Shown one piece after another: positions 28,221-28,404 of a DNA stretch of 64,000 nucleotides. The position numbers and the translations under genes are program-made. Positions within the stretch are counted from its first letter, which is position 1; each line of letters starts with the position of its first letter. The notes below the pieces were generated by a model that had not been told where the DNA came from, did no database searches, and saw only the letters and a list, made by a program, of their open reading frames with translations. The stretch lies in the sequence record PV682947.1. The stretch is one strand, 5' to 3'. This DNA comes from Escherichia phage WPEC4.

Positions 28221-28404
28221 AACATTTTAACATGAATTAGCTCAAGTGATTTGAACCCACTACTGATCATGGTGGCAGAGAATGAGGCAAGTATGTCAGA
28301 CATTATAAACAAAGGCCACGGTTATATTAGAAGACATAAATGCTCGAAGAGCACCGTTCGTTGAGAACGGGGGTTGGTGGAGTCACCATTCATGGTAAAA
28401 TGTT
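28221..28404 (+). ncRNA. candidate structured RNA with paired termini
   Basis: 17-nt inverted repeat AACATTTTAACATGAAT / ATTCATGGTAAAATGTT (16 of 17 pair) closes about 180 nt. Confidence 0.3.

Follow-up and report, generated by a model that had tools for sequence, protein, structure and literature searches.

The window analysed here, a stretch of 64,000 nucleotides from Escherichia phage WPEC4 (sequence record PV682947.1), originates from a phAPEC8-like coliphage (Phapecoctavirus, Stephanstirmvirinae) and carries an array of 10 to 11 tRNA genes between positions 28068 and 29993, as detected with ARAGORN and Rfam. Inside this array, on the + strand, lies a non-tRNA element of about 184 nt (28221-28404), in a region that matches Escherichia phage WPEC1 at 100% identity and phAPEC8 at 99%. 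Sequence comparisons indicate that this element is a member of a previously undescribed family of small RNAs derived from tRNA-Ile(GAU), and our literature search found no description of this RNA. In this report we define the structure and distribution of the family, and we consider what such an RNA may do during infection.

The locus and its closing arms

The element is bounded by two 17-nt arms, AACATTTTAACATGAAT (28221-28237) and ATTCATGGTAAAATGTT (28388-28404), which are complementary at 16 of 17 positions and have 150 nt between them. The first arm starts 1 nt past the gene for tRNA-Arg(TCT) (28145-28219, + strand, CCA encoded), and the second ends 11 nt upstream of the -35 hexamer of a predicted sigma-70-like promoter (28416-28445, + strand). 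We scanned the whole window for inverted repeats with 17-nt arms, no more than one mismatch and loops of 3-260 nt; the pair described above was the sole repeat of its class, and none was obtained in 10 first-order shuffles. The 184-nt RNA is predicted to fold with a free energy of -52.5 kcal/mol (z = -3.7), and its minimum-energy structure is closed by the arms. Moreover, the closing helix is present in all 17 distinct homologues that we could align. The initial annotation had proposed a structured RNA whose terminal arms, 17 nt long with 16 complementary positions, enclose about 150 nt between tRNA-Arg and the next promoter, and all of this was confirmed, including the closure of the fold by the arms. 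What it overlooked is the identity of the RNA, which belongs to a conserved family that has tRNA-Ile(GAU) as its scaffold and bears an anticodon-arm look-alike.

Transcription of this part of the array would start at a sigma-70-like promoter predicted at 27829-27858 (+ strand), which would drive a spacer RNA, tRNA-Met, tRNA-Arg and the element; no terminator separates the element from the next promoter, the one at 28416-28445 just downstream. The sequence AACTATTGACAA, consisting of an upstream box and the -35 hexamer, is found in three exact copies (27824-27835, 28411-28422 and 29381-29392). The three promoter-like sites that it heads split the array into sub-units, the first of which has the element as its final gene.

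Homologues and distribution of the family

BLAST searches started from three lineages returned the same ~100 phage records each time. Members of Phapecoctavirus carry copies 97-100% identical to that of the window, and the copy of phiWec181 is 81% identical. More distant homologues, ~70% identical, are found in Klebsiella phage 05F01 and in the Seunavirus phages PVP-SE1, GAP31, SSE121, 4MG, FENT2 and the EspYZU phages. We aligned 17 distinct variants (alignment A2) and built from the family a covariance model, R1, which scores 209 bits on the element of the window and 160-210 bits on the homologues from Phapecoctavirus, Klebsiella phage 05F01 and Seunavirus, each related phage locus yielding a single copy. 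On the window itself R1 found no second copy and matched none of the other array spacers.

When public collections were scanned with sequence patterns, just four viral and four metagenome contigs were added, all close relatives of the phages already listed. A match designated L024, from the genome_contigs collection, was discarded as a chance hit, since it had neither a model match nor tRNAs. No homologue was found in 5,426 E. coli genomes, and phi92, which belongs to the sister genus Justusliebigvirus and has a comparable tRNA array, carries no copy of the element even when the search was run with filters off. The family thus appears, from these searches, to be confined to Phapecoctavirus-like and Seunavirus phages.

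Comparison of homologous loci revealed that the element is conserved and its flanks are not. Within A2, the blocks TTAGCTCA, CTGATCAT, GAATGAG, TCGNAGAG and GGTGGAGTCACC are invariant, whereas the sequence between them varies. The element is the sole non-tRNA segment common to the array of the window and to those of Seunavirus. That only this non-tRNA part of the array was kept across two phage subfamilies indicates strong selection. The gene is carried by ~100 sequenced phages, among them candidates for phage therapy from the phAPEC8 and PVP-SE1 groups, whose records either leave it without annotation or wrongly call it a hypothetical protein.

Covariation supports a conserved RNA structure on the + strand

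In the best structural model, 91.1% of 949 pair cells hold a standard pair, and 25 of the 56 pairs are altered on both sides among the 17 variants. When the 3' partners were moved by 1-3 columns, these slid controls gave only 37-51% standard pairs, with 4-9 pairs altered on both sides. None of 500 column shuffles reached the observed percentage of paired cells, the number of both-side changes or the covariation score. Such changes affect 6 of 16 pairs in the closing helix P1, 4 of 6 in P2, 7 of 9 in P3, 4 of 7 in P4 and 4 of 6 in P5, so that every variable helix covaries, including the arm P3/P4, which has no counterpart in tRNA. One P4 pair changes from A-U to G-C even between two phages that are 97% identical (the window and UP17).

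Wobble cells comprise 65 G-U against 11 A-C combinations. This excess of G-U suggests an RNA of the + strand, which is also the strand of the tRNAs. Thus a conserved + strand RNA structure is shown by the pattern of substitutions, and the proposal of a structured RNA closed by terminal pairing is supported by the covariation, by the wobble asymmetry and by the lack of a conserved reading frame or terminator. In particular, no terminator-like site was detected on the + strand within 28221-28410, and the only + strand terminator with a strong stem in the tRNA array is located at 30109-30127.

A small-protein gene could be suspected at this position: GenBank records of several relatives (WPEC, ETEC-TG, EP57, GEC_vB_MG and 05F01) annotate hypothetical-protein features across the element, and the window contains a TTG-started open reading frame of 37 codons (28251-28364). 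This is highly improbable, given that no reading frame is open throughout the variants, that the longest open stretch switches frames and strands from one to another, that single-base indels separate the lineages, and that the substitutions preserve pairs and are not codon-like. It is scarcely credible, in turn, that the conserved unit is the DNA itself, as an inverted repeat belonging to a miniature transposable element, a recombination site or the target of a homing endonuclease. The terminal inverted repeats and the HNH endonuclease genes that adjoin the element in SSE121 and PVP-SE1 would agree with such a nature, but each searched locus has a single copy, always in a tRNA array, the internal helices covary as well, and the asymmetry between G-U and A-C cells is unexpected for DNA hairpins.

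The HNH endonuclease gene lies directly 3' of the element in both phages (2686-3257 of the PVP-SE1 locus, L003, and 516-1010 of the SSE121 locus, L005). It is situated between a truncated 5' piece of tRNA-Leu and a complete tRNA-Leu, in an arrangement that resembles a homing-endonuclease insertion.

Secondary-structure model

All features of the model are on the + strand. The 5' strand of P1 (28221-28237; 92.6% of cells paired) comprises an inner part of 7 nt, CATGAAT (28231-28237), at the position of a tRNA acceptor stem, and an outer part of 9 nt that lengthens the helix past an A-G mismatch; Seunavirus has a 2x2 internal loop there. The 3' strand of P1 (28388-28404), which was assigned by inverted-repeat pairing and by covariation, lacks a CCA end. 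The 5' strand is followed by TA and GCTC (28238-28243), which are identical, in the alignment with E. coli ileT, to U8, A9 and the D-stem residues 10-13 of tRNA, and TAGCTC is invariant in the family. The 3' strand of this D-stem (residues 22-25) and position 26 are provided by GAGC and A (28349-28353), collinear with ileT 22-26; the GCUC:GAGY pairing with 28240-28243 can be formed in 17 of 17 variants, the sole variation being a change from G-C to G-U, which is neutral with respect to covariation.

About 105 nt are inserted at the position of the D-loop. This insert holds two arms. The first (28249-28283) is a stalk, P2x, in which ATTT (28249-28252) pairs with GAAT (28280-28283) and which bears the hairpin P2. 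The stalk is paired in 98.5% of cells, but its bases are nearly invariant, so that covariation is silent about it; it is chosen by ViennaRNA under constraint. P2 (28257-28275; 97% of cells paired) is the anticodon-arm look-alike, composed of a covarying 6-bp stem and a loop of 7 nt. The loop, CTGATCA (28263-28269), reads C32 U33 G34 A35 U36 C37 A38 in tRNA numbering, contains the palindrome TGATCA, and is invariant in all 17 variants although the stem covaries. The second arm, P3/P4 (28287-28343, P4 being 28304-28326), is long and irregular, has a variable tip and is supported by both-side pair changes.

Past the insert, the hairpin P5 (28354-28370) is formed by 6 bp and a 5-nt loop, with 98% of cells paired. 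In length and place P5 matches the anticodon arm of a tRNA, but the sequence of its loop varies and does not resemble an anticodon loop. It is followed, in invariant columns at 28371-28387, by a 5-nt linker, GGGTT, and by the hairpin P6, GGTG-GAGT-CACC. The linker is AGGTC in Seunavirus, which is identical to the variable loop of ileT, and P6 corresponds to the stem of a T-arm with a tetraloop where the T-loop would be. The core thus runs from the closing helix through U8-A9, the GCUC:GAGY stem, a single nucleotide, a 17-nt arm, a 5-nt linker and a short hairpin back to the closing helix; in the model, this is shown to be the connectivity of the tRNA cloverleaf. When six representatives were folded under constraint, the energy of the cloverleaf-like model was 0 to 3.3 kcal/mol from the minimum.

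Two local alternatives for the GCUC strand were rejected. The hairpin GCUC-GAA-GAGC appears in the minimum-energy fold of the window element, but it conflicts with covarying pairs of P3, since the bases on its 5' side covary with the bottom of that helix, and Seunavirus has a mismatch in it. A local D-arm, GCUC/GAAC, is paired in only 70.6% of cells, and one of its positions is never paired.

The element is derived from tRNA-Ile(GAU)

The element is not itself a tRNA. ARAGORN makes no call, and cmscan of 28215-28410 with permissive filters gave no + strand match to the tRNA clan (RF00005 and relatives) at E <= 10. The sequence has U8-A9, a D-stem (TAGCTC...GAGC) and a 7-nt anticodon loop of the U33 type (CUGAUCA). 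However, it has neither a T-loop (UUCRANY) nor a 7-bp acceptor stem followed by CCA; it presents instead GGUG-GAGU-CACC and a closing helix of 16-17 bp. Since it has no T-loop, no CCA end and no normal acceptor stem, we exclude it from the tRNAs proper.

Its relationship to one particular tRNA was nevertheless clear from alignments. Local alignment with the tRNA-Ile of the same phage (29763-29836) gave a score of 30, whereas the 13 other tRNAs and tRNA-like stretches of the array scored at most 17 and the null distribution, taken as the best score over all, was 18.8 +/- 1.8 with a maximum of 24. None of the six other array spacers tested had a tRNA-like signal. The segment 28238-28274 aligns without gaps to positions 8-44 of ileT, with 29 of 37 identical residues and a score of 29, against 12.2 +/- 1.9 for shuffles. 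In this alignment U8 A9 is UA, the D-stem 10-13 is GCUC and is followed by a D-loop-like stretch, and the anticodon stem (5' CACUA, 3' UGGUG) flanks the loop CUGAUCA. This loop differs from the CUGAUAA of tRNA-Ile only in having C for A at position 37, and the anticodon is GAU.

The Seunavirus copies add a second region of similarity. All 11 bases of the sequence GAGGTCGGTGG / GAGGUCGGUGG coincide with those of ileT 43-53, and the order and spacing of GAGCGC, 17 nt, AGGUC and GGUGG are collinear with ileT 22-53. Furthermore, some weak full-length matches of R1 fall on true tRNA genes, for instance on a tRNA-Thr (L023) and on the tRNA-Pro of phi92; these positions were checked against the tRNA calls, and the alignments run helix for helix with a 103-nt insert deleted. 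These data indicate that the RNA is derived from tRNA-Ile(GAU) and built on its scaffold. As the element contains two overlapping segments that resemble tRNA-Ile (positions 8-44 and 22-53), the simplest origin would be a partial internal duplication or a fusion of two tandem tRNA-Ile genes.

An ancestry of this kind raises the question of whether we are looking at a decaying relic, that is to say a functionless tRNA-Ile pseudogene or a partial tandem duplication. The two partial tRNA-Ile-like segments, the loss of the T-loop and of the CCA end, and the rejection of the element by tRNA finders are what a relic would show. We consider it very unlikely all the same, because compensatory changes are seen in every variable helix, P3/P4 included, and because across two phage subfamilies the length varies only from 187 to 189 nt and many bases outside the helices never change.

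Position of the element within the tRNA array

In most variants, and in all three lineages, the 5' end of the element lies 0-3 nt after a CCA-ending sequence or a called tRNA. The gene found upstream varies: the window has tRNA-Arg there, 05F01 has tRNA-Met, and GAP31 and SSE121 have a tRNA-like gene of unusual form, whereas in PVP-SE1, FENT2 and three metagenome contigs the element is preceded by another helix-closed element. On the other side, 05F01 and Seunavirus have tRNA-Leu(TAA), or a 5' remnant of it, 2-4 nt past the closing helix. This layout at tRNA ends implies, without proving it, that the RNA is released by tRNA processing and that its ends are shielded by the closing helix.

Four other spacers of the array, none of them tRNA-like, are closed by terminal helices whose outer limits lie only a few nucleotides from the tRNA genes on either side (27868-28065, 28634-28749, 29109-29194 and 29500-29596). 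None of the four is common to Seunavirus, and that at 28634-28749 is common to Klebsiella phage 05F01. The first of them, which the initial annotation had described from position 27872 as having a similar architecture and a dissimilar sequence, indeed has imperfect 35-nt arms (27868-27902 and 28031-28065) and is not matched by the family covariance model; it is unrelated to the element at 28221-28404.

The existence of four spacers with closing helices flush to tRNA ends suggests a general design rule of the array, and thereby a role purely in cis, in which the element would be a helix-closed module of the tRNA precursor that helps the tRNAs to fold or to be processed, or buffers read-through into the next promoter, and would have no function once released. 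We regard this as unlikely. A pure spacer would need no invariant loops and junction bases across ~30% divergence; its neighbours change by lineage (on the upstream side tRNA-Arg, tRNA-Met, an odd tRNA-like gene or another element, and on the downstream side a promoter or tRNA-Leu); the element is the only spacer common to both subfamilies; and the similar array of phi92 does without it. The invariant unpaired bases and the changing neighbours thus make a purely cis role less likely.

Some other features of these arrays were noted. Seven of the ten tRNAs called by ARAGORN in 28068-29993 have anticodons with U36 (Met CAU twice, Arg UCU, Ser GCU, Asn GUU, Thr UGU and Ile GAU). They decode ANN codons, and tRNAs of this class normally bear t6A37. 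ARAGORN missed four tRNA-like genes (28454-28540, 28765-28849, 28950-29032 and 29840-29912). One of them reaches 37 bits with the tRNA-Sec model and has the anticodon UGA and a long variable arm, another, with the anticodon GUA, reaches 39 bits with the tRNA model, and the remaining two are uncalled and have T-arm-like sequences. At the 3' end of the array, over the terminator at 30109-30127, there is a weak match to the RyhB model (30080-30134, + strand; 29.4 bits where the gathering score is 55, E = 0.0095), overlapped by a weaker match to the MicA model. A short way downstream of the array, 30519-31685 and 33279-34073 code for TelA-like and TerF-type vWA proteins, which belong to the tellurite-resistance family. 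Finally, the PVP-SE1 locus contains a tRNA-like gene of ~110 nt (2198-2308) that was missed by tRNA finders and has the acceptor stem GCCGGGU/ACCCGGC, a T-arm and CCA, followed by a 181-nt RNA (2311-2491) directly upstream of the element, with a 15-bp closing helix formed by CATCTTATGTACGGG and CCCGTACATAAGATG.

A possible role as a mimic of tRNA-Ile

A conserved RNA that combines a tRNA-Ile scaffold with a copy of an anticodon arm is probably a tRNA mimic. The reading that we favour, tentatively, is that the element is the gene of a stable non-coding RNA derived from tRNA-Ile(GAU), which acts in trans as a mimic of this tRNA and may serve as a decoy for a protein that reads its anticodon arm. 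The RNA would be co-transcribed with the tRNAs from the promoter at 27829 and would be excised by the tRNA-processing enzymes of the host. Its 5' side would be set through the 3'-end maturation of the preceding tRNA, and its 3' side by the RNase P cut at the 5' end of the following tRNA, where one is present. The closing helix of 16-17 bp would then shield the ends of the RNA, which would act in trans by mimicking the tRNA-Ile of the host.

The most likely function is at this stage a guess, which we advance with low confidence: a decoy or competitive inhibitor of a reader of the tRNA-Ile anticodon arm, most plausibly an anticodon nuclease encoded by the host or by a resident prophage. Several circumstantial observations support it and hint at a conflict in which tRNAs are cut. 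An RNA-repair cassette is located ~4 kb upstream on the - strand (21551-24313). It encodes a P-loop kinase (polynucleotide-kinase-like ATPase, 21551-21955), an Rnl1-type RNA ligase (21956-22888), a calcineurin-like metallophosphoesterase (22890-23441) and a protein with a cyclic-phosphate-processing receiver domain (cREC_REC, 23957-24313); an open reading frame that we could not assign also belongs to it. T4 repairs PrrC-cut tRNA with a toolkit of the same kind (cited in PMC10264068). The tRNA-Ile(GAU) of Seunavirus has C33 where U33 is nearly universal (loops CCGAUAA or UCGAUAA), whereas the element keeps the host-like CUGAU, and changes in the anticodon loops of phage tRNAs have been proposed as an escape from host tRNases (PMC10264068). 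In addition, tRNA-Ile(GAU) is a secondary target of HepS, encoded by the Salmonella prophage Gifsy-1 (PMC13043305), and is cut between positions 32 and 33 by CdiA-CT EC536 (PMC11724271). The Seunavirus tRNA-Ile genes with C33 are found at 4158-4233 of L003, 3470-3544 of L004, 3386-3462 of L006 and 2076-2151 of L005, and one of them has an odd T-loop, AGCAAAG.

In its most explicit form, this idea would make the RNA an anti-defence factor: its host-like anticodon arm, which cannot be modified at position 37, would trap or inhibit an anticodon-loop nuclease or another toxin directed against tRNA-Ile, while the phage supplies its own tRNA-Ile (with C33 in Seunavirus) and an RNA-repair cassette. 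So detailed a scenario is doubtful.

Several points weigh against a tRNA-Ile mimic that acts as a decoy. We infer the accumulation, the processing route and the mature ends of the RNA. The diversity of the family stems from only three lineages, with the consequence that inherited changes are counted many times, and the GCUC:GAGY stem and the P2x stalk vary so little that covariation cannot confirm either helix. HepS is triggered by siphovirus tail-tip proteins, which makes it no obvious enemy of this phage group. The tRNA-Ile of the window phage has the normal loop CUGAUAA. Homologues of the RNA ligase occur in 606 phage records, against ~100 with the element, and phi92 has the ligase and lacks the element. 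Proteins that depend on t6A37 or on the tRNA elbow may moreover fail to recognise the RNA, given its C37 and the absence of a T-loop.

The same structural evidence would equally fit a stable trans-acting RNA that is not a nuclease decoy, which could engage some other reader of tRNA-Ile (IleRS, the t6A enzymes, the ribosome or RelA), pair by way of its conserved loops with an RNA target, act as a sponge in the manner of E. coli RNAs that stem from tRNA spacers, or form kissing-loop dimers through the UGAUCA of the P2 loop. The substitution of C for A37, by which alone the loop differs from that of tRNA-Ile, is precisely what renders it self-complementary (UGAUAA to UGAUCA), so that loop-loop dimerisation is conceivable, and the unpaired blocks GAGAAUGAG and UCGNAGAG are likewise invariant. 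By-products of tRNA operons that work in trans also have precedents in 3'ETS-leuZ and rtT RNA. However, the only complement of the loop in the 64-kb window is the loop itself, no homologue of the element exists in the E. coli genomes searched, GGA motifs of the CsrA type are not conserved between lineages, and none of the proposed partners is singled out by the data. Overall, a trans-acting RNA of this second sort seems to us somewhat unlikely, and its variant as a CsrA sponge was dropped on account of the varying GGA motifs.

The mimicry of the tRNA-Ile anticodon arm is a concrete hypothesis that can be tested by genetics. If the decoy proposal is true, the countermeasures of phages to tRNA-cleaving defences would extend from tRNAs to RNA decoys.

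Comparison with known RNAs

The element matched no family of Rfam 15, either at gathering thresholds or at E <= 10, when the window, the 2.6-kb array and the element alone were searched. With tRNA-Ile(GAU) it shares U8-A9, the D-stem GCUC/GAGC, a loop of the form C-U-G-A-U-N-A, the 5-nt linker, the T-stem GGUG/CACC and the order of the cloverleaf; it differs by the GAGU tetraloop, the closing helix of 16-17 bp, the insert of ~105 nt, C37 and the lack of CCA.

Bacterial Y RNAs of the YrlA type (RF02553), some of which are encoded by phages near tRNA genes, resemble the element in joining the 5' and 3' ends in a long stem and in having a tRNA-like module. The element lacks their T-loop/D-loop module, however, and the YrlA model did not match it; its sole match in the region, of 22.8 bits against a gathering score of 69, falls on true tRNA genes (29701-29820). 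3'ETS-leuZ and rtT RNA are by-products of tRNA precursor processing that persist in the cell, and 3'ETS-leuZ is a trans-acting sponge, but these E. coli RNAs are short, not tRNA-shaped and without sequence relation to the element. An anticodon-arm copy outside a tRNA is also known from the operator of the thrS mRNA, a hairpin that is bound by ThrRS. Whereas the thrS operator is a cis-regulatory mRNA leader, the element would be a free-standing phage RNA gene, and the principle that they may share is only proposed.

The closest parallels are the species 1 and 2 RNAs of T4 (rnaC and rnaD), non-tRNA RNAs encoded within a phage tRNA cluster whose function is still unknown (PMC3014915, PMC12685909). 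rnaD starts 1 nt past tRNA-Arg(UCU), as does the element in the window, although the upstream gene differs in the other lineages of the family. rnaC has tRNA-like parts, namely a T-arm hairpin (CCGGG-UUCGAAU-CCCGG) and paired ends. Rfam holds no model of rnaC or rnaD, and its best match over rnaC in the searched T4 region is weak and tRNA-Sec-like. The two RNAs are 119 and 139 nt long, against 184 nt for the element, and rnaD ends in CCA, which the element lacks. Moreover, the T4 RNAs have a T-loop and no copy of an anticodon arm, whereas the element has the anticodon-arm copy and no T-loop. A CUGAU motif noted in rnaD was not retained as a counterpart, since it lies outside any anticodon-like hairpin in the minimum-energy fold. 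R1 gave no match on rnaC or rnaD in a search of T4 positions 68000-76000, and no homology was detectable.

By sequence and predicted fold, the element is thus similar in kind to the species 1 and 2 RNAs of T4 and to other tRNA-like non-coding RNAs, and homologous to none of them. These findings bear on a puzzle that is about 50 years old, the role of the small stable RNAs in phage tRNA clusters, of which T4 species 1 and 2 are examples. If the element is indeed a decoy, the species 1 and 2 RNAs of T4 may be parallel cases of tRNA-derived decoys carried in phage tRNA arrays.

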